NCBI GenBank assembly: GCA_002747745.1
Contig: PDQG01000004.1
Location: forward strand, 183,216 to 247,215
Origin: a bacterium DOLZORAL124_38_8
GTDB taxonomy: Bacteria; Patescibacteriota; Gracilibacteria; UBA4473
Length of the DNA stretch: 64,000 nt
Direction: 5' to 3'
The position numbers were made by a program, and so were the translations under genes. Under the pieces are notes generated by a model. The model made no database searches. It was not told the origin of the DNA and saw only the letters and a program-made list of their open reading frames with translations. This document shows, piece after piece, positions 2,776-56,386 of this stretch (within the stretch, counting starts at the first letter, position 1; each line of letters opens with the position of its first letter).

Positions 2776-3528
2776 TTAATTTCTATAAATTTCTACAGGG
2801 CTGGCTTGATTGGTTGGATACACCACCATTTCTTCAATATTTACTCGCTTGGGAGCCTTGATAGCAAATAAAACCGCCTCTGCGATATCTTTTGCTATTA
2901 AATTATCAAATGAATCATACACTTTATCTGCAGCCGATTTATCTCCATGAAACCGAACCACCGAAAACTCCGTTTCGACCGCCCCAGGGGCAATATCGGT
3001 AACACGAACCTGTGTGCCAAGCAAATCTTTTCGCAAGGCTTTCGAAAACGATTTAACAAAGGACTTCGTGCCACAATACACATGCCCACCAACATACGGT
3101 TCTCTTCCGGCGATGGAACTAATATTTATTAAATGTCCTTTAGTTTTAATCAATTTCGGAATGGATTTTCGAGCGACGAGTGTAAAACCTAGCACATTCG
3201 TTTGAATCATTTCCGATAAATCGGTCCATTGACTGTCTTGAAATTTATCTCTCCCACGAGACAAACCGGCATTATTTATCACAGTCGATACCGATATATC
3301 TTTAATTGACTCAAAAAACTCTCGCACCTGCGTTTCATCCGAAACATCAACCGAAAATATTTTTATTTCCACGCCAAAAGCTGTTTCTAATTTATTCTTT
3401 AATGCTTCTAATCGTTCGTACCGACGAGCAACCAGTATCAGATTCGCTCCTTGTTCGGCGAGTAATTCGGCACAACTTTGTCCAATGCCACTACTCGCTC
3501 CCGTTACCAATACAAATGATTTCATCAC
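2776..3528 (-). CDS. SDR family NAD(P)-dependent oxidoreductase (YdfG-like)
   Basis: 'TGASSGIG' cofactor motif, 'NNAG', and catalytic 'YCGTKSFV' (YxxxK). Confidence 0.85.
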   Translation of the reverse strand: MMKSFVLVTGASSGIGQSCAELLAEQGANLILVARRYERLEALKNKLETAFGVEIKIFSVDVSDETQVREFFESIKDISVSTVINNAGLSRGRDKFQDSQWTDLSEMIQTNVLGFTLVARKSIPKLIKTKGHLINISSIAGREPYVGGHVYCGTKSFVKSFSKALRKDLLGTQVRVTDIAPGAVETEFSVVRFHGDKSAADKVYDSFDNLIAKDIAEAVLFAIKAPKRVNIEEMVVYPTNQASPVEIYRN

Positions 3529-6151: not shown

Positions 6152-6901
6152 ATGAAACAAAAAGGTTTATGGAAATTATTAGAAGAGTTACAATCACAAA
6201 ATTTTGTTGATTTAACCCATTCATTCTACCCTGGCATCCCTCATGCCTCTGACATGCCAGATCAAGAAATTATTACACTTTATGATTTTGAAAACAATGG
6301 CTTTCAAGCACACTATTATAAGCATGTAGGTCAATGGGGCACACACATTGATCCTCCTATACACTTTGTAGAAGGAGGAAGATCAATTGACCAAATAGAA
6401 GTTTCGGAGATGTTGCTTCCTTTAGTGTGTTTTGATTGTTTGGAAAAGACAAAGAATAATTCTGATTTTGTTTTTTCCTTAGATGATTTAATTCAGTGGG
6501 AATCTATAAATGGTCAAGTACCCCCAAATGCCTTTGCAGTAATGAAGACTGGATGGGCAAAATATTGGCCATCTAATTCTGCAATGTTAAATAAAGATTC
6601 TCAGGGAATCTGTCATTTTCCAGGTTGGGGAATGGATGCCGTTAAATTTTTAATTGAAGAAAGAAATATAAAAGCATTTGGTCACGAAACTACTGATACA
6701 GATGGAGGGAAAGCAATATCTAATGGGAATTACTCAGTAGAAACTTTTCTTCTGGAACAAGACTGTTTTCAAATAGAACTTCTTGCTGAAACAACAAAAC
6801 TACCCGAAACGGGAGCCATAGCAGTGGTTTCTTTTCCAAAACCCAAAGGTGGCTCTGGTTATCCAGCAAGAGTTTTTGCACTTTATCCTAATGAACAATA
6901 A
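6152..6901 (+). CDS. cyclase family protein (kynurenine formamidase-like)
   Basis: 'HVGQWGTHIDPPIHF' matches the HxGTHxDxPxH metal motif of the putative cyclase family. Confidence 0.7.
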   Translation: MKQKGLWKLLEELQSQNFVDLTHSFYPGIPHASDMPDQEIITLYDFENNGFQAHYYKHVGQWGTHIDPPIHFVEGGRSIDQIEVSEMLLPLVCFDCLEKTKNNSDFVFSLDDLIQWESINGQVPPNAFAVMKTGWAKYWPSNSAMLNKDSQGICHFPGWGMDAVKFLIEERNIKAFGHETTDTDGGKAISNGNYSVETFLLEQDCFQIELLAETTKLPETGAIAVVSFPKPKGGSGYPARVFALYPNEQ

Positions 6902-6902
6902 A

Positions 6903-6920
6903 AACCGCCGTTGGCGGTTA
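6903..6920. terminator. short GC hairpin between the cyclase gene and the tRNA (weak terminator candidate)
   Basis: accgcc-gtt-ggcggt stem-loop immediately after the stop codon; only a short interrupted T run follows. Confidence 0.3.
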
Positions 6921-6934
6921 TTAATCTTAAAAAT

Positions 6935-7011
6935 TGGTGACTAAGGGCGGACTTGAACCGCCGACCTCCGGGTTATGAATCCGACGCTCTAACCAGCTGA
7001 GCTACATAGTC
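6935..7011 (-). tRNA. tRNA with CAU anticodon (Met; a lysidine-modified Ile2 cannot be excluded), CCA encoded
   Basis: The reverse complement folds as a cloverleaf: acceptor gactatg/cttagtc, D arm gctc-agctggtta-gagc, anticodon loop ttCATaa, T arm ggcgg-ttcaagt-ccgcc, then a-cca. Confidence 0.85.
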
Positions 7012-37382: not shown

Positions 37383-40300
37383 ATGAATAAGTTTAAAACA
37401 TTACTTTCTTCTGTAGCCTTAGCCGCTTTGGCTTTGACATTTACTTCAGTGAATGCGGCATACGTGGATGAATCAAAAATCCCTAGTTATGCAAAATCAT
37501 CAATTGAAGAATTGACAAAACAAGGTGTATTGCGAGGTTTCGGAAACACAGGAGAATTTAGACCACAAAACGAATTAAATCGGGCTGAAGTGTCTAAAAT
37601 TATCGTATTGGCGACAGGAGTTGAATTGTCTGCAGACGCAGCCTCTACTTCTTTCCCAGATGTAAAAGAAGGAGCATGGTTTTACGACTACGTAAATACT
37701 ATGGCCGATAAAGGGTGGATTAATGGATACCCAGACGGAGAATTTAAACCAGGAAATACCATCAACCGAGTTGAATTGGCAAAAATGGTTGTGAACGCTT
37801 TCGGTATTGAAAAAAATACTGCTGGAGCTCCACATTTCTCTGACGTAACAGAAGACGCTTGGTTCTTCGATTACGTAGAAACATTGTACAACAACAACAT
37901 TATGAAAGGATTCGCTGATGGATCTTTCCGAGGAGGAGAAAATGTTCTTCGAGCGGAAACAGCATACGTTGTGTACGAATCACAAAAAGCGGTTGCTGAC
38001 TCAGCAGCAAACGCAAAAGGAACTTTGGAAGTTGAATTGTCTAGCAAAACTGCTAAAGGAATGAAAATTCCTTACAACTCTACCGCTGTTCCATTTACAA
38101 CTGTAGAATTCACAGCTTCTGATGACGCTGATGTAAAAATCTCAGGAATTACTGTAAACCGATTAGGTTTGGGTGATCATGATGATTTCTCAAAAGTATG
38201 GTTGGAAATTGACGGATTTAAAATCGGAAACGATAAATCTGTAAACTCAAACGATCAAGCTGAATTAACTTTCAGCCCAGCAATCGTGGTTCCAGCAGGA
38301 AAAACATTGGTAGCTGATATCGTAGCTTCAATGGATGGTAAAGCAGATACAAATGATAAACCATTTGATTTGGGACACGTAAATCGATTGGCTATTGTTT
38401 CTGCTGAATCAATTACATCTTCGGCATCAAATGTTGTAGGACAATTTACTATTGAAGGAGAAGAAATGGAAGTAGCTAATTACAAAGTTACAAACCTTGA
38501 ATTCACTCCATTTACTTCAAATGCTGATGTAGAAGTTGGAGATCAATTTGCTGAAATTGGTAAATTTAAACTTCAAAATGATTCTAAAAACAACAAAGCA
38601 GTAGAAGTACGAGCGATTACTTTGAAAAACATGGGTTCAGCTGAAATTGGTGAAACTTTGGAAAATGCTGTGTTGTACGTTGCTGGAAAACAAGTTTCAG
38701 TTGGAAAAGCAATCATTGATGGTGATTACATTACTTTCCGATTGGATAACGGAACTACTGGTGGATACGTTATTAATGATGGATTGACAAAAATCTTCTC
38801 AGTTCGAGCAGACATTGTGATGGCTGAAAAGAAAGATACAGTTCAATTTAAAATTGATAACTATGAAGACGTAGTTGCAATTGAAGCTTCAACTGCCTTT
38901 GGAGTACGAACAGTTGTTGGTACAAAAGATGCAGAAGATGCTCCTACAGAAATGGGAGTGTTTACAATTAAATCAGGAGATTTGAATGTTTCTCGAGATC
39001 CATCTTCTTTGGCTTCTCAAGATGTTGCTCAAACAACTAATGATGTTCAATTGTTGAAAGCGCGAGTAGTAGCTGAACAAGGAGTAGCAGTTGATGGGGT
39101 AAAAGTAAAAGCAAAAGTTGAAAATAAAGGTGGAGTAGCTCCATTTAAAAATTTCAAATTGTATGTAAACGGAAAATTAGTTGATTCTGTTGAAAAAGTT
39201 GAAGGAGGGTACTTGGACTTTAGTTCAGCCTTTGAATTGACTGGAACTTCTGTATTGGAAGTAAAAGCAAATGTTGATACAAAAGCTAAAAATGACGCCT
39301 TCATTAAACTTGATTTGATGGCAAATGATTTTGATGCTCCAGAATATATTTCTAATGGAGATGTTATTGATTCTAAATACGGATCGGCTTCTGGGTCTGT
39401 GGTAACAGTTATGTCTTCTAAAATTAAATTGACAAGAGTTGATTCAATGAAGAATGAGAAAGCTGTTGCTGGAGTTAAGAGTCTTGAAATATTGAAATTC
39501 AATATCGATAATAATAAAGGAGGAGACGTATTGGTTTCTAATGTTGAATTAGAAGTTGCTCTAGGAGGAAAAGCGGCTGCTGATGCTGGAAACTTCCAAA
39601 TGGGATTGTTTGCAGATGGAGTTCAAATTGCAGGAACTCGAAACTTAACTGAAACTACATCTGGAAATGCAAAAGTATCTTTTGGAGATGTTTCAATTAT
39701 TGTTCCTTCAAATGGATACAAAAAAGTAACCGTAGCAATGGATACAAATAACTCTGTAACAGACGGAACAGGGGCAGATGATACATTGAAAATTACTAAA
39801 GTTGTTGTAGAAGCAACTAACCAATTGAATGGAAAAGAAGTTACTGTAGATGGAGGAAATACTCTTGAATCAGCACTCTTTACTTTCTCAAATTCTGGAA
39901 AGTTGACTGTTACTGAATCAGGATTAACTAACGAACTTAAGTCTGCCGCAGTTAAAGCGGGAGCTTCTAAGGTTGATGTATTCAAATTCTCTGTTAAATC
40001 AGATTACGATAAAGTTGAAGTGTCTGATTTTTACATGAAAAATGTAACAAATTCTGATAACTTTAAAAACTTAGGACAAGTATATGAATTAGTAGATCCT
40101 TCAGGGAATGTTGTTGCAAGTGATACTATGACTGACAACAAGTTACATTTCTCATTGTCTAACAAAGCAATTGTTTCTTCTTCTGAACAAGTATATACTG
40201 TGCGAATGAACGTTGGTTCAATTGCAAACGCAACGGCCACAGCCGCTCACTTGAAATTGGTGATTGATCAATCTGTAGAAGAAAAAGGAATAGAAGCAAC

Positions 40301-41648
40301 GACAGCTGCTACAGGAGAAAACATTGCGAAGGCAGATGTTGATGTAAACGTAGCAGAAAGTCCAGACTTTGTAGCTTACAAATCATTGTTGAGCTTGAAG
40401 AATAACGGAAAATTTGCCTTGAATGACACTGGTGTAAAACACAAAGTTGCGTCTTTCAAAGCAGTAGCTGACGGAGAAATAGAACTAGGAAAATTTGCTG
40501 TTAGAGCAACATTCCATAATGTAAAAGTTAAAGAAGGGGTATTACCTAAAAAAGCTGTAACACAAGCTGTTGATGCTGCAACAGAAGTGGCTAAATTAGA
40601 TGCTTCAGCAGTAGTTGATGCGGTAGCAGAAATTCCTGCTGGACCAGAAGTAACAAAACTATCATTTAGTGGTAATGCCACAAAAGATGGTGTAATTACG
40701 GTTAACTTAGCTGGAACTACTATTACTACAGATGTAGCATTTGGTTCATCTAATACTGATATTGCGACAGCGGTTGCAACAAAAATTAATGATAACGCTA
40801 ATTTTGCAGCAGAAGTTGTTACACCTGCTAACGTAGTTAAAGTAACTTCTGTTGCTACAACAGAACAAACTGATGCTACGGTTGATACAAATGGTACCGG
40901 TACAACAGCTGGTGTAATGGTTGCTCAACAAGGTGGAGTAGTAACTCCAGCAGTAGCATCTAATGTTAAAGCTGGAACTTTGAAAATTTCTCTAAATGGA
41001 GCTGCTTCAGTAGATGTAGCAATTACAGATGGAATGACAAAATCTGCGTTGTTGACAGCTGTTCAAGGAAAGGCATACACAAACTACTCAGCAGCAATTG
41101 CAGGAGATACAGTAGAATTCACTGCTACTGGAGCCAATGCAGATAGCGATCAAACTGATATTGTGATGAGCTTTGAACCAACAAATGCTGGTGATACATT
41201 GCCTGTTACAGCTTCTGTTAAAACACAAGGGGCTACGGCTGTTGCACCTGGAGCAGCTACACCAGGAACTGGTACATACTTCTTGTTGACAGAAGGTGGG
41301 GATGCTGATGTTGTTTATGCTCGGTATGCTGTATCAGCAGATGATGTTGAAAATGAAGTTGTTAAGTTTGAATTACCAGCAAATCATAACATTGCAGGAG
41401 GTTCTTCTCGAGTATATGACTTGTACTTGGTAGGATTGAAAGATGACGCTAATGATAAAACTGATTCATCAGTTTCATTCGAATTATTAGATGATTCTTC
41501 TTACTCAGCTGCAAAAAACAAAGCTGGACAATCTTCAGCAAATGTTGTTTGGTCTGATAAATCAGCGGTTGGTCACTCAGTTGACACATTTGACTGGTTG
41601 AACGGATACAAATTAGATATTGACACAGATTCTGTTACTGTAGATTAA
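37383..41648 (+). CDS. S-layer-type surface protein with three N-terminal SLH domains
   Basis: Signal peptide 'LSSVALAALALTFTSVNA'. Three SLH repeats ('FPDVKEGAWFYDYVNTMADKGWINGYPDGEFKPGNTINRVELAKMV' and others). 1421 aa with no Cys; Ala/Val/Thr/Asp/Lys-rich repeated beta-sandwich-like modules. Strong terminator and long leader. Confidence 0.8.
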   Translation: MNKFKTLLSSVALAALALTFTSVNAAYVDESKIPSYAKSSIEELTKQGVLRGFGNTGEFRPQNELNRAEVSKIIVLATGVELSADAASTSFPDVKEGAWFYDYVNTMADKGWINGYPDGEFKPGNTINRVELAKMVVNAFGIEKNTAGAPHFSDVTEDAWFFDYVETLYNNNIMKGFADGSFRGGENVLRAETAYVVYESQKAVADSAANAKGTLEVELSSKTAKGMKIPYNSTAVPFTTVEFTASDDADVKISGITVNRLGLGDHDDFSKVWLEIDGFKIGNDKSVNSNDQAELTFSPAIVVPAGKTLVADIVASMDGKADTNDKPFDLGHVNRLAIVSAESITSSASNVVGQFTIEGEEMEVANYKVTNLEFTPFTSNADVEVGDQFAEIGKFKLQNDSKNNKAVEVRAITLKNMGSAEIGETLENAVLYVAGKQVSVGKAIIDGDYITFRLDNGTTGGYVINDGLTKIFSVRADIVMAEKKDTVQFKIDNYEDVVAIEASTAFGVRTVVGTKDAEDAPTEMGVFTIKSGDLNVSRDPSSLASQDVAQTTNDVQLLKARVVAEQGVAVDGVKVKAKVENKGGVAPFKNFKLYVNGKLVDSVEKVEGGYLDFSSAFELTGTSVLEVKANVDTKAKNDAFIKLDLMANDFDAPEYISNGDVIDSKYGSASGSVVTVMSSKIKLTRVDSMKNEKAVAGVKSLEILKFNIDNNKGGDVLVSNVELEVALGGKAAADAGNFQMGLFADGVQIAGTRNLTETTSGNAKVSFGDVSIIVPSNGYKKVTVAMDTNNSVTDGTGADDTLKITKVVVEATNQLNGKEVTVDGGNTLESALFTFSNSGKLTVTESGLTNELKSAAVKAGASKVDVFKFSVKSDYDKVEVSDFYMKNVTNSDNFKNLGQVYELVDPSGNVVASDTMTDNKLHFSLSNKAIVSSSEQVYTVRMNVGSIANATATAAHLKLVIDQSVEEKGIEATTAATGENIAKADVDVNVAESPDFVAYKSLLSLKNNGKFALNDTGVKHKVASFKAVADGEIELGKFAVRATFHNVKVKEGVLPKKAVTQAVDAATEVAKLDASAVVDAVAEIPAGPEVTKLSFSGNATKDGVITVNLAGTTITTDVAFGSSNTDIATAVATKINDNANFAAEVVTPANVVKVTSVATTEQTDATVDTNGTGTTAGVMVAQQGGVVTPAVASNVKAGTLKISLNGAASVDVAITDGMTKSALLTAVQGKAYTNYSAAIAGDTVEFTATGANADSDQTDIVMSFEPTNAGDTLPVTASVKTQGATAVAPGAATPGTGTYFLLTEGGDADVVYARYAVSADDVENEVVKFELPANHNIAGGSSRVYDLYLVGLKDDANDKTDSSVSFELLDDSSYSAAKNKAGQSSANVVWSDKSAVGHSVDTFDWLNGYKLDIDTDSVTVD

Positions 41649-52292: not shown

Positions 52293-53219
52293 ATGAAATA
52301 TGAATTTACCGTTACTGAAACACAGTCTGGGCAACGGCTCGATAAACTGTTGGGAGAATTATTGGCGGACCAAACTTCTCGTTCGCAACTACAAAAAAAT
52401 GGAACTTTTTGGTTAGAAGTTGATTCAGAATGGCAAAAGCAATTGTTTAAAACCAAAGTACAAGCAGGACAAAATTGGCGCATTGAATGGGAAGAAACAG
52501 CTCTCAATTTAGACAACCTTCAACCATGGGAAACAAATATGGAAATTCTGCAAGAAACCGATGATTTTGTGTGTATTAATAAGCCAATTGGCGTGTCGGT
52601 GCATCCGTCGGAAAGTGAACAATCCGATCAAACCGTGGTAAATTTTTTGGTGGCAAAATATGGGAACTCTTTTTCAAAAAATTTTGAGGAGGCGTCGTTC
52701 CGTCCTGGTATTGTGCATCGACTTGATAAAACAACTTCTGGGGTGCTGTTGGTAGCCAAAAATGTGTCGGCGTTGCGGTTTTTTCAATCTCACTGGGGAA
52801 AGGACACGAAAAAAACATATTATGCTTTGGTAAAGGGTATTCCGCCGCAAAATGGAAACATTAAGAGTGGGATATTGCGTGACCCAAAAGATCGACAGAA
52901 AATGATGGTGACGGATTCTCCCAAGGCTCGACCAGCTCACACTACGTTTGAGCGGTTGGCGGAGTCGGTAGATGGAAAATATTCGTTATTAAAGGTACAG
53001 ATTTTTACGGGAAGAACGCATCAAATACGCGTGCATTTAGCGGCGATTGGGTTTGCGATTGTCGGTGATGAAAAATATGGTGGAGAACCCGCGGAGCGAG
53101 TGTTTTTACACGCGGGAGAATTGCAGTTTTTAGATCCAAAAAACAAACAAAAAATAATGGTTCAGACAGAGTTTCCAGAGGTGTTTTTGAAAAAGTTTAA
53201 ACTTAATCCATTAAAATAA
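52293..53219 (+). CDS. RluA family pseudouridine synthase (RluD-like, with S4 domain)
   Basis: 'GQRLDKLL' S4-like N-terminus, catalytic 'HRLDKTTSGVLLVAK' and 'GRTHQIRVHL'. Confidence 0.9.
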   Translation: MKYEFTVTETQSGQRLDKLLGELLADQTSRSQLQKNGTFWLEVDSEWQKQLFKTKVQAGQNWRIEWEETALNLDNLQPWETNMEILQETDDFVCINKPIGVSVHPSESEQSDQTVVNFLVAKYGNSFSKNFEEASFRPGIVHRLDKTTSGVLLVAKNVSALRFFQSHWGKDTKKTYYALVKGIPPQNGNIKSGILRDPKDRQKMMVTDSPKARPAHTTFERLAESVDGKYSLLKVQIFTGRTHQIRVHLAAIGFAIVGDEKYGGEPAERVFLHAGELQFLDPKNKQKIMVQTEFPEVFLKKFKLNPLK

Positions 53220-53882
53220 TTGGAACTACGCAAAAGGTATTTCCAGAGTTTTCAAAATTTCCCTCGGTATGTTTAATATTGTAAGATGTTTTGTATGGAT
53301 AGGTTGGATTACAATTGGGGATACTATCAATCATTGATTCATCTTGACACATGTATAAATATTGGGGGGATGTTTTACAATCTTGATTTTCTCCTTCAAG
53401 CATAAATGCAATCCATGCATTTCCATTAAATACATTCTTTGGTGGTCGCATAATCCCCATGCCAATATAACTCATTTTGCTATTAGAATCAGCAGGAATC
53501 TCTTTTTCTATTTTTTTAAAATCAACGTGTTTCCTAAATAGTGCTTCAACATCATTTTGTTTTGTATAATTCTTCCGCCATGGACTATTTTTCCATAAAC
53601 AGGTCTCACTTCCCAAGCAAGAAAATTGCCATGTTCCATCCAATGGGAGCACTCTATCAAAAGCTTCTTTTCCTTCTACGGTTAAGATTCTGTGTGCGGC
53701 ATCTATATACATTTTTGCGGCGGTTATGGTTCGAATATTTCGGGCTTTGGCAAAGTATGATTTGAATTGAGAGATTCCAATGCCTGAGAGAATTCCAATT
53801 ATTACAATCACAATCAGTAATTCTATAAGAGTAAAAGCCTTTAACCTAGTGTTTCTTGTGTGTGTGTGTGTGTGTGGATCAT
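53203..53882 (-). CDS. type IV (ComGC-like) prepilin; as sequenced, its only ATG is out of frame because of a (CA)10 tract (frameshifted or phase-variable)
   Basis: The frame of the track ORF (GTG at 53811) extends upstream as ...HTHTRNTRLKA/FTLIELLIVIVIIGILSGIGISQF, a class III signal peptide with an N-methylation motif. No start codon lies in that frame before the TAG at 53911-53913. The ATG at 53880-53882 is offset by 2 nt. Confidence 0.7.
53857..53876. repeat. perfect dinucleotide microsatellite, (TG)10 on plus and (CA)10 on the coding strand
   Basis: Counted directly: ten TG units at 53857-53876, inside the 5' end of the prepilin gene. Confidence 0.95.
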
Positions 53883-53914
53883 TTTTGCTGTTTTTATTTT
53901 TAGTAAAATTCTAT

Positions 53915-56386
53915 TTATACATCCAACCGTGTAAAGATTTCTTTTTCTACAAATTTTTTACTTCGGGCATGAGTAAGTCGAGAGATTTGTTTTACGGCCG
54001 TAGCAATTTCTTTGTCGCCTTTTTCGAGCCACGGTTTTACCACATTCAAACTAAAGGGAATACTTGGTTGTCCGTCGATACAAATTTTGATGGCGGCTTT
54101 AAACGCATCCTGATTGGTTAAGTCTTGGTCGGTAAACACGGGTTGCATTTGTTTGGCCATAATTTCTCCGTCATCTGGACCAATTTTATAACACATCATC
54201 GACCCCACATTCCCAAATACGGCGTCTTTCAAATTAACGCCTTTTCCGCCTTGTTTAGCGGTATCAATTTGGCTGGTGTATTGGTGGGCAATGTTGAGGC
54301 TTAACCGGTATTTTCGGGCTTCTGATAGGATTGATTCAAGCGAGTCGGTTACGTAATTTTGGAACTCATCGATGTATAGGAAGAAATCACGTGGTTTTTT
54401 TCCAGCGGTTAAATCTTTTTGTCGTCGGAGCGCGGCCATTTGGATTTTGTTTACGATAATCAACCCTAAGAGTTTCGAGTTCATGTCTCCGGTCATCCCT
54501 TTCGACAGGTTCATCATTAGAATTTTCCCCTCGTCCATTACTTGTGAGAAATCAAAGGCGGACTTGGTTTGCCCCAAGATGTTTCGCATCATTCCATTGG
54601 TGGTAAATTGCCCAAATTTCGCAGCAAAATACGGGATCATTTCTTGTTGTTCTCGTTTTCCGGTGGCGGCCATTTGCTTGGTCCAAAACGATTTAACTAC
54701 GGGATTTTTTACGTGTTGCACTCGTGATTTTTGAAACACGTCATCGGTAAATAATCGTAACACATCAGTCAAGCATCCTCCATCTGGGTGTGCCATGAGG
54801 GTTAAACATCCATTTCGGAAGTAATCTTGAATCCGTGGTCCAAAAGTTTCCTCATTAAAGATTTTAATCATGATGTTCATGGCATCGAGGGCCACCATAT
54901 CCATTTCTTCTTCGGTTTTGGCTTCGAGCAAATTCAATCCCATGGGCCGTTCAATATCAGCGGGATTAAAAATAATAACGTCGTCAATTCGATCTCGTGG
55001 AATATACGGTAAAACATCTTCCACCAAGCTTCCATGTGGATCAACCACGCAAAGTCCGTCTCCGTTTCGGAAATCTTGTCGGATGATGTTTTGGAAAATA
55101 CAAGATTTCCCAGTCCCCGTTTGTCCAATTACATAAAAGTGTCGGAAACGGTCTTCTCGTTTCATGTAAATGGGCGTCGATTTTCCGCGGTATACATTGT
55201 GTCCCAACAAAATCCCTTCTTTGGGAATATTTTGTGGCGATTTAGCAACTTTAAAGTTTTGCCATTTTACGCCTGGAATTTTATTCAGTCGAATATGTGG
55301 AAAATGAAATAAGGAAGCAATTTCTTCAACGTTCAAAATAAGTTTGTCGCTCTTGGCGTGCCAAGGACAAGAAAAAATTCGGAGAATGTAATCGCGAATA
55401 ATCTTGCGTGGATTTTCCCACTTGGTGCTTGAAAACCCATTAAAGTTTGGTCCTGAAAATTGGGTAAAGGCATTTGTGAGTGTCGACAAATTGACTTCTG
55501 CTTCGCGTTCGTATGGAGCGGAAGCAATAACCCGAATAACGGTTTCAAATGCTACATGATCGGCTTTTTCGGTAATTACTTGAGTGGCTTCATTGGCTTC
55601 TTCAGACTCCTTTTTTTCATCGTCTTCTTTGTCTGATTCATCGGCTCCAGCAAGTAATAATGAGAATAAATTAGCGATGATTCGTAACGGATTCACTTTT
55701 CGCCAAATGCTGGGACTTTCACCTTCAGATAATTCTTTCGAATATTTTCGGGCGTCTTTTTGCCAACCGTCAGCGACGGGACGAATCATGATTTGAACTC
55801 CGGCTGAGTTGCCGTGTTCATCGTTGGCCGCCGATAAAGTATTGAGCAAATTGTTCATCGGATCAACCGCTTCAAACTTTTTATACGTTTTAATTGGATG
55901 ATAAAAAGTTTTATTTCCTACTAATTGGGTGGCGGCCTGTTTGGCATTTTCGGCAAAAATATTCGGTGGTTCACAGGGTTCAATAATGGCTTCTGGGTAG
56001 AAAGACGTGATTTGTTTTTCAATTAACGCTTGTAGGTCACGTGGACAACCAACAAAAAATTTTATTTCGTTGTCAGAGGCAATGTATTCGAATGATAGGA
56101 AATCTTCGTTTATAAAATGGTTTTTGAATTTTCCTGAATAAATTCCGTAGAGCGTTTTAAAGAAATCTTCGGCGATAGAAATTTGTTTTTTAGGGTCAAT
56201 TTGTGCGCCTTCGAGTTCTCGATCTTCTTTCGATTCCTTTTTTGGAATCATAATTTGTAAAAAAATAAAGTTTGCTGATCGGTTAAAATCGGCTTTTTTC
56301 TTCATTTGGTCGAGTATGAACCAGCCGAGTAAAAAAAGGACTCCGACTCCTGCACAAACCGCTCCCCAAAGTATATATTGATTCAT
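53915..56386 (-). CDS. VirD4/TraD/TrwB-like P-loop ATPase (type IV secretion coupling-protein family) with N-terminal TM helix and a ~400-aa uncharacterised domain
   Basis: TM 'ILWGAVCAGVGVLFLLGWFIL'; Walker A 'VIGQTGTGKS'; 'LCVVDPHG'; Walker B 'FFLYIDEFQ'; 'RKYRLSLNIAHQY'. The overall pattern is that of TraD/VirD4-type ATPases. Confidence 0.75.
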   Translation of the reverse strand: MNQYILWGAVCAGVGVLFLLGWFILDQMKKKADFNRSANFIFLQIMIPKKESKEDRELEGAQIDPKKQISIAEDFFKTLYGIYSGKFKNHFINEDFLSFEYIASDNEIKFFVGCPRDLQALIEKQITSFYPEAIIEPCEPPNIFAENAKQAATQLVGNKTFYHPIKTYKKFEAVDPMNNLLNTLSAANDEHGNSAGVQIMIRPVADGWQKDARKYSKELSEGESPSIWRKVNPLRIIANLFSLLLAGADESDKEDDEKKESEEANEATQVITEKADHVAFETVIRVIASAPYEREAEVNLSTLTNAFTQFSGPNFNGFSSTKWENPRKIIRDYILRIFSCPWHAKSDKLILNVEEIASLFHFPHIRLNKIPGVKWQNFKVAKSPQNIPKEGILLGHNVYRGKSTPIYMKREDRFRHFYVIGQTGTGKSCIFQNIIRQDFRNGDGLCVVDPHGSLVEDVLPYIPRDRIDDVIIFNPADIERPMGLNLLEAKTEEEMDMVALDAMNIMIKIFNEETFGPRIQDYFRNGCLTLMAHPDGGCLTDVLRLFTDDVFQKSRVQHVKNPVVKSFWTKQMAATGKREQQEMIPYFAAKFGQFTTNGMMRNILGQTKSAFDFSQVMDEGKILMMNLSKGMTGDMNSKLLGLIIVNKIQMAALRRQKDLTAGKKPRDFFLYIDEFQNYVTDSLESILSEARKYRLSLNIAHQYTSQIDTAKQGGKGVNLKDAVFGNVGSMMCYKIGPDDGEIMAKQMQPVFTDQDLTNQDAFKAAIKICIDGQPSIPFSLNVVKPWLEKGDKEIATAVKQISRLTHARSKKFVEKEIFTRLDV

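Follow-up and report, generated by a model that had tools for sequence, protein, structure and literature searches.

A CA microsatellite in the leader of a Patescibacteria type IV prepilin gene as a candidate slipped-strand switch

We analysed a 64-kb window (the whole stretch of 64,000 nucleotides, positions 183,216 to 247,215 of contig PDQG01000004.1 from the bacterium DOLZORAL124_38_8) that carries, on its minus strand, a type IV prepilin gene whose leader region is occupied by a perfect (CA)10 microsatellite. The evidence makes it likely that this is a prepilin gene of Gracilibacteria/Peribacteria-like Patescibacteria in which a hypermutable (CA)n tract, lying between the start codon and the cleavage site, determines whether the prepilin is translated. 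The proposal draws on the anatomy of the leader, on a homologue read in frame through its own tract, on unit numbers and frame states that differ between homologous genes, and on a disruption of the reading frame that depends on tract length. Slipped-strand mispairing at replication would add or remove CA units at high frequency, and a population would then be mostly OFF, with a smaller share of cells that are ON (n=9 or 12) and make the pilin. The (His-Thr)n stretch encoded by the repeat belongs to the leader, which prepilin peptidase cleaves off; in-frame changes of tract length therefore leave the mature pilin as it is, and gain or loss of units would toggle expression without changing the product. 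The likely benefit would be bet-hedging of a surface filament subunit, as in attachment to host cells, DNA uptake or exposure of a phage receptor. Reversibility, the switching rate and the adaptive value of the CA tract are what we infer from the comparisons below. As a precedent for the mechanism, Levinson and Gutman reportedly observed in 1987 that frameshifts by 2-bp steps arise frequently in E. coli/M13 at poly-CA/TG tracts once these reach about 10 units.

The prepilin leader and its CA tract

All coordinates are those of the window, and reading frames were re-derived by script (Table 1). Between the TAG that closes the pilin frame upstream and the hydrophobic helix, this frame (which reads NFTKNKNSKNDPHTHTHTRNTRLKA) contains no ATG, GTG or TTG, and the sole ATG upstream of the pilin lies, at n=10, 2 nt out of register with it, opening a frame of 13 amino acids (aa) that encodes MIHTHTHTQETLG and ends at TAA. 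On the 3' side of the tract the sequence AGA AAC ACT AGG TTA AAG GCT / TTT ACT CTT ATA GAA is read as RNTRLKA/FTLIE, with the codons for Phe+1 at 53835-53833 and Glu+5 at 53823-53821. Editing of the tract in silico restored the full open reading frame (ORF) at n=9 (225 aa) and at n=12 (227 aa); with n=8, 10, 11 or 13 the product was a peptide of 10-15 aa. The preliminary description of this locus had placed the annotated start at GTG 53811, the ATG and the TAG at these same positions, had noted the lack of any other start codon up to the helix and had traced the offset between the two frames to the CA tract; direct reading and script agree with it on each of these points.

Three properties by which contingency loci based on simple sequence repeats (SSRs) are recognised were found here. 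The tract is a perfect SSR, long enough for hypermutability, that lies near the 5' end of the coding sequence and whose unit length is not a multiple of three; a change of unit number flips the gene between a full-length ORF and an early stop while the rest of the ORF remains intact; and homologous genes differ in repeat number and include both ON and OFF states. The preliminary description had noticed no other dinucleotide microsatellite than (CA)10 in the window, and indeed it is the sole dinucleotide repeat of at least 5 units within the window, the expectation for (CA)10/(TG)10 per 64 kb being 2e-8 under a first-order Markov model and 6e-8 from base composition; related Gracilibacteria loci, about 200 kb in all, contained no dinucleotide SSR. 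An identical (CA)10 is present in the separate Logan assembly of run SRR6011893 (contig L001), which probably uses the same reads and hence controls for assembler error, not for biology.

Two features upstream agree with the ATG as the true start, neither of them statistically compelling. One is a promoter-like site that would leave a short 5' untranslated region ahead of the ATG and is not significant alone, as shuffled sequences yield 4.3 such sites in the region; the other is an A-rich AAAATAAAA motif that precedes the ATG in this gene and in two homologous loci, L002 and L083, described in the next section.

The protein repaired at n=9 scored above the cut-offs of both general prepilin profiles, with 28.3 bits against PF07963 (cut-off 21.2) and 27.6 bits against TIGR02532 (cut-off 16.3), so that the class III leader and N-methylation motif recognised earlier are genuine; the annotated 202-aa ORF starting at GTG had no family match in the profile search. 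Prepilin leaders were judged by a short, positively charged stretch, Gly, Ala or Ser at -1, Phe+1, Glu+5 and a helix of about 20 hydrophobic residues, and the sequence ...RNTRLKA/FTLIELLIVIVIIGILSGIGI fits this description, with Ala at -1, Phe+1, Glu+5 and the hydrophobic helix. Ala or Ser at -1 also occurs in the homologues P0003, P0007, P0009 and P0017 and in a Paceibacteria family. The mature pilin is about 30% identical over its full length to P0003, P0004, P0012 and P0014, which have ordinary leaders, and its Cys, Gly and Asn columns are conserved in the distant homologues P0002, P0003, P0004, P0012 and P0014.

The gene product is a large, generic type IV pilin. The models of more specialised pilin equivalogs all scored far under their cut-offs, with alignments confined to the generic N-terminus. 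A resemblance to streptococcal ComGC, suggested from the cleavage junction, did not hold up: only Ala at -1 is in common, the NF040999 score is 21 bits against a cut-off of 75 with only the generic N-terminal 18 residues aligned, the mature protein has 210 aa as opposed to about 90 aa, and no comGA-comGG operon surrounds the gene. Thus, of the contingency locus for a competence or surface pilus originally put forward, the prepilin and the anatomy of a switch are borne out, and the ComGC-like, competence-related part is not, given the size of the mature protein and the lack of comG or type IV pilus machinery genes nearby.

Three different gene calls exist for this pilin, of 169 aa (internal ATG, P0001), 202 aa (GTG 53811) and 207 aa (ATA 53826; P0018, the NCBI nr product with an ATA start), and the leader is missing from all three. 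Tract-bearing pilins are systematically mis-annotated; gene callers truncate or mis-start them (here to 169, 202 or 207 aa, against 225 aa for the full prepilin), and metagenome-assembled genomes (MAGs) with such tracts consequently have incomplete annotations of their pilin repertoire.

Table 1. Features of the prepilin locus, in window coordinates.
Feature	Position	Strand	Remarks
In-frame TAG closing the pilin frame upstream	53911-53913	-	strand reading and script
Promoter-like TTTACA-16 nt-TAGAAT	53908-53935	-	10/12 consensus matches; overlaps the 3' end of the VirD4-like gene upstream
Sole ATG upstream of the pilin, putative true start, followed by ATC	53880-53882	-	reading, script and alignment
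Perfect (CA)10 microsatellite, proposed slipped-strand switch	53857-53876	-	ON at n=6, 9, 12; OFF at n=10
TAA ending the 13-aa OFF-state peptide MIHTHTHTQETLG	53841-53843	-	6 nt before the Phe+1 codon
Leader remainder RNTRLKA, Ala at -1 of the prepilin peptidase site	53836-53856	-	
N-methylation motif and hydrophobic alpha-1 helix FTLIELLIVIVIIGILSGIGI (Phe+1, Glu+5)	53773-53835	-	PF07963, TIGR02532
Intact mature pilin ORF, 210 aa and TAA stop	53203-53835	-	Cys-rich globular domain

Related leaders in homologues and metagenomes

A protein search retrieved the homologue P0002, a product called from MKRFHTHTRNTSLNA/FTLIE, that is, MKRF-HTHT-RNTSLNA/FTLIE. In the DNA that encodes it (L002) the leader is written ATG AAA AGG TTC (CA)6 AGAAACACTAGC CTA AAC GCT TTT, in frame, with six units in a tract whose position and 3' flank match those of the window tract. 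This gene is therefore read in frame through (CA)6, so that its repeat yields (His-Thr)n in the leader peptide, as the preliminary description had supposed. In a second homologue, L083 (PDWI01000128.1, a contig of 105 kb with gltX, prs and RNase J near the pilin), the corresponding region is AAAATGTTC(CA)8AGAAACATTAGC TTA AAA GCC TTT. Upstream of the tract, AAAATGATC(CA)10 of the window aligns with AAAATGTTC(CA)8 of L083, and ATG and flank align as well; the L083 gene is out of frame and its mature ORF of 249 aa is intact.

The layout ATG-(CA)n-AGAAACAYTAG is thus common to the three genes, and the DNA flank 3' of the tract, AGAAACACTAG, is conserved in L002 and L083. The distance from ATG to Phe+1 is 44 nt in the window, 40 nt in L083 and 42 nt in L002, and the comparison of related genes that had been called for accordingly returned different unit numbers with different frame states: ON at n=6 (L002), OFF at n=8 (L083) and OFF at n=10 (window). 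With their layout ATG-NTC-(CA)n-21 nt, the window gene and L083 would both be ON at n=9; the former lies one unit above that number and the latter one unit below, which is the pattern to be expected if single units slipped. What the three genes have in common is the 5' cassette, their C-terminal domains being different, as in paralogues.

Searching JGI metagenomes with a specific pattern of tract plus flanking DNA gave 0 matches. A looser pattern, requiring (CA)n with n>=5 no more than 31 nt ahead of TTY ACN YTN ATH GAR (FTLIE), was then applied and returned 106 loci, about half of which are genuine prepilins judging from the hydrophobic helix that follows. Genes were scored as in frame when an ATG was found in frame upstream within 45 codons. 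A usable in-frame ATG was present in 43 of the 44 genes with tracts of n=5-6 and in 4 of the 15 with n>=7 (range n=7-20; Fisher p=5e-8 versus n=5-6), the latter proportion agreeing with the 1/3 to be expected if the phase were random (binomial P(<=4 of 15)=0.40). In every long-tract gene the mature ORF, of 170-304 aa, is complete and the CA tract uninterrupted, and apart from the leader tracts these loci contain no dinucleotide SSR of 5 or more units. Such a combination of intact ORFs and perfect tracts fits what an actively slipping switch, and not a decaying pseudogene, would be expected to leave.

Tract-bearing pilins fall into at least three families, among them a Gracilibacteria-type family, a Paceibacteria/Minisyncoccales LamG-domain family and a third family of higher GC content, a recurrence that adds interest beyond the single locus. 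We tentatively extend the proposal and consider it possible, with less confidence than for the window gene itself, that (CA)n/(His-Thr)n prepilin-leader tracts are a recurrent phase-variation device of Patescibacteria, stably in frame at n=5-6 and phase-scrambled at n=7-20.

The largest set shares the leader (HT)nQS/FTLIELLVVIVIIGILSGLVVIATSSFIEK and was found on 8 contigs, with n=7, 7, 10, 11, 13, 13, 14 and 20. Its parent group, the LamG-domain pilins that NCBI records name Candidatus Pacebacteria/Minisyncoccales, is very large. Among the top 120 homologues, 118 have plain leaders without a His-Thr repeat (e.g. MKNKS/FTLIE), the exceptions being P0033 (MIIKNKHTS, in which His-Thr occurs once) and P0020, a truncated product; the tract is thus a derived feature of a subset of the LamG group. 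The eight tract-bearing members (L123, L120, L108, L087, L052, L044, L042 and L034) are 80-95% identical over about 100 nt upstream and, within the coding sequence, over about 180 nt at the 5' end and about 100-150 nt at the 3' end, and in all eight these conserved ends enclose central regions that are unrelated. This cassette-like mosaic could permit recombinational shuffling. Two genes of this set, L034 and L044 (n=14 and n=13, both out of frame), lie on one contig, Ga0265294_10004254, and L031, which goes with the family described next, carries tandem tract-bearing pilins with n=10 (a FTLVE gene) and n=7(+TA3), both in frame; the occurrence of two such pilins on single contigs suggests multi-gene repertoires resembling that of the Neisseria opa genes.

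Further tract-bearing prepilins are a family with the leader ...DS(HT)nPNRVA/FTLIE (n=12, 18 and 7), which on L031 has the FTLVE gene with n=10 as a neighbour, and the singleton L028 (n=8). In the pilin family represented by L040 (Phe+1 at 3406) and L092 (Phe+1 at 747), a GTG stands two codons ahead of Phe+1 (GTG GCG TTC), and an ORF beginning MA/FTLIE can be called even with the CA tract out of frame. The L040 contig, which has a (CA)12 pilin, also contains a perfect (AGTCGTT)x16 at 6844-6955, in an intergenic space that has trmD on one side and a convergent gene's terminator on the other. Several unrelated prepilins (L033, L093, L065, L088 and other loci with n=5-6) have short HTHT leaders with R/P-N after the repeat, as in RHTHTRNRG/FTLIE and MTRTHTLPRG/FTLIE. 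These leaders resemble the (HT)nRNT leader of the window and are possible proto-repeats from which long tracts expanded.

Alternative explanations

Several points weigh against a slippage switch at this locus. All assessable assemblies of the organism are OFF (the window, L001 and the products P0001 and P0018), and an exact look-up of the in-frame products for n=6, 9, 12 and 15 found none in a collection of 15 billion proteins. Tract lengths were read here from assembled contigs, and since the C-terminal domains of the window gene, L002 and L083 differ, the series n=6, 8 and 10 is one between genes, not between strains at one locus. The counts for the 15 long-tract genes are not independent because 8 of them come from one family, with 1 of these 8 in frame. 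No comG gene, pilus assembly gene or prepilin peptidase gene was found among the ORFs of the window. Finally, a Foldseek search against the PDB gave nothing significant, the best match being the C. difficile minor pilin PilW at E=0.5; as the AF2 model (a helix at residues 3-53 followed by strands) is itself of moderate quality, with a mean pLDDT of 66, the fold was left unused as evidence beyond the N-terminal helix.

The uniform OFF state and the missing ON product would also be explained if the tract had slipped out of frame once and the gene had been lost in this lineage, with no adaptive reversible switching, and this pseudogene interpretation, which we regard as unlikely, is the best of the alternatives. 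It can likewise claim that 20 related Gracilibacteria/Peribacteria loci show no synteny for the gene and that most of the long-tract relatives are out of frame as well. However, the phase of the tract is the sole lesion in the gene, behind which a frame of 218 codons has remained open (a chance probability of about 2e-7 at this composition), and its Cys, Gly and Asn columns are conserved with distant homologues. Nor is the window gene isolated in this respect, as the mature ORFs of 11 other out-of-frame long-tract genes (170-304 aa) are all intact and the tracts are perfect, without degeneration, and the in-frame proportion of 4/15 matches the equilibrium of 1/3 at which an actively slipping tract would settle.

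The out-of-frame majority would be harmless if the genes were expressed regardless, that is, if a ribosomal hop of +2 or -1 or slippage of RNA polymerase recoded the message at n=10 and made the tract a device for constitutive or leaky expression. A dinucleotide repeat would permit perfect codon-anticodon re-pairing after a shift of 2 nt, and polymerase slippage does rescue frameshifted genes at long homopolymers in endosymbionts; to our knowledge, though, slippage of polymerase or ribosome on dinucleotide tracts is not established in bacteria. Recoding is disfavoured, and we deem it improbable, because the homologues need different corrections (44, 40 and 42 nt from ATG to Phe+1), with no single conserved shift, and because neither a stimulatory structure nor a known element accompanies the tract: the RNA 3' of it folds no better than shuffled sequences (z=+0.86), and the locus had no match to a recoding element in Rfam.

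It is still more improbable that the tract length is an assembly or sequencing artefact and the gene, with 9 or 12 true units, is simply ON. Microsatellites are prone to PCR stutter and both assemblies may stem from the same run, but two different assemblers yielded exactly (CA)10, a tract of 20 nt is far shorter than a read, and eleven unrelated contigs from other projects are out of frame at n=7-18, a consistency that artefacts would not produce. Finally, a downstream start at ATA 53826 or GTG 53811, which database gene calls adopt and which would make the CA tract an irrelevant part of the 5' untranslated region, is hardly credible, since the resulting products begin inside the hydrophobic helix without leader, cleavage site or Phe+1 (and, for the GTG product, without Glu+5), the 202-aa product matches no family while its upstream extension completes the motif, and the homologues translate through the tract.

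Known switches, gene neighbourhood and host

A slippage switch in the prepilin leader would have close parallels in known phase-variable genes. In Helicobacter pylori, sabA, sabB and hopZ carry CT dinucleotide repeats in the 5' region that encodes the signal peptide. CT repeats in the equivalent region of oipA (hopH) drive phase variation of this gene (PMC10564699), and the likeness to the window gene extends to a perfect dinucleotide repeat placed just after the start codon, within the leader that is cleaved from a surface or adhesion protein, and to one-unit slipped-strand changes that flip the frame ON or OFF with the mature protein unchanged (PMC10564699). The two differ in that oipA encodes an outer-membrane protein with a Sec signal peptide in a well-studied pathogen, where switching has been shown experimentally, whereas the window gene has a class III prepilin leader, a CA (His-Thr) unit and an uncultivated Patescibacteria host, and its switching is proposed from sequence comparison. 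The Neisseria opa genes, multi-copy surface adhesins most of which are OFF at any time, have CTCTT pentamer repeats in the region encoding the leader peptide. They recall the Paceibacteria LamG pilins with their two tract-bearing copies on one contig, both OFF, and their conserved ends and variable centre, and differ from them in the pentamer unit and in encoding outer-membrane beta-barrels instead of pilins. Expression of pili is under SSR-controlled phase variation also in Neisseria pilC, with a poly-G tract in the signal-peptide-coding region of a pilus-associated protein that is not a pilin, and in Haemophilus influenzae hifA/hifB, where (TA)n in the promoter sets the promoter spacing of a chaperone-usher pilus; neither has a repeat in a prepilin leader.

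Closer in lineage, a hypervariable surface protein with PTD repeats, for which slipped-strand mispairing was discussed, has been described in Gracilibacteria BD1-5 (Sieber et al. 2019, PMC6851277). It is, like the window gene product, a surface protein with a repeat in the same broad lineage, but its unit is an in-frame 9-mer that keeps the reading frame, so that it provides no ON/OFF switch, and it is not a pilin (PMC6851277). Full-text literature searches found no paper linking Patescibacteria or the Candidate Phyla Radiation (CPR) with phase variation of pilins; the one CPR paper found to discuss slipped-strand mispairing is that on the PTD repeat (PMC6851277). The mechanism is of a known kind, from whose closest examples the present case differs in its location in a prepilin leader, the proposed switching of the pilin structural gene itself, the CA unit and the Patescibacteria hosts.

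Type IV pili are the main predicted tool of the ultrasmall Patescibacteria for attachment to host cells and DNA uptake, and since few of these bacteria have been cultured, little is known about the control of pilus expression. Should the leader tract act as a slippage switch, surface display would be both stochastic and heritable, which would bear on the interpretation of host range, phage susceptibility and the success of co-cultures. If the wider proposal were also true, episymbionts would bet-hedge pilin display with an opa-like repertoire that governs attachment to hosts, uptake of DNA or exposure to phage, and this would be the first SSR 'phasome' described outside the classical host-adapted pathogens and commensals.

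The gene upstream of the pilin (53915-56386, minus strand; stop TAA at 53917-53915) encodes a protein of 823 aa with a DUF8128 and a VirD4/TraD/TrwB-like coupling-ATPase domain, and ends 32 nt from the pilin ATG. On the other side, a convergent gene for an RluA-type pseudouridine synthase (52293-53219, plus strand) overlaps the 3' end of the pilin by 17 nt (53203-53219), and no terminator-like hairpin was found between the ends of these two genes. The pilin contains the only prepilin motif in the window, and the other ORFs scanned are mostly housekeeping genes. Among GTDB species representatives, the closest relatives of the ATPase are encoded by Gracilibacteria/Peribacteria MAGs (61-66% identity), followed by Abawacabacteria (45%), in agreement with the reduced-genome host originally envisaged. 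A pilin beside the ATPase gene was found in 0 of 20 related Gracilibacteria/Peribacteria/Abawacabacteria loci, and synteny thus yields no orthologues.

Stop codons are used very unevenly, the 40 large ORFs of the window ending in TAA (29), TAG (9) or TGA (2). Genetic code 25 was considered and rejected, because TGA closes two genes at real overlapping junctions and the long ORFs are intact under table 11; the standard code is therefore used here despite the relatives in the class Gracilibacteria, and code 25 would in any case leave the reading frames at the pilin locus unchanged. The only other microsatellite-like run in the window is an (ACA)4 at 37888-37899, within a gene (37383-41648, plus strand) for a protein of 1421 aa with three S-layer-homology (SLH) domains.

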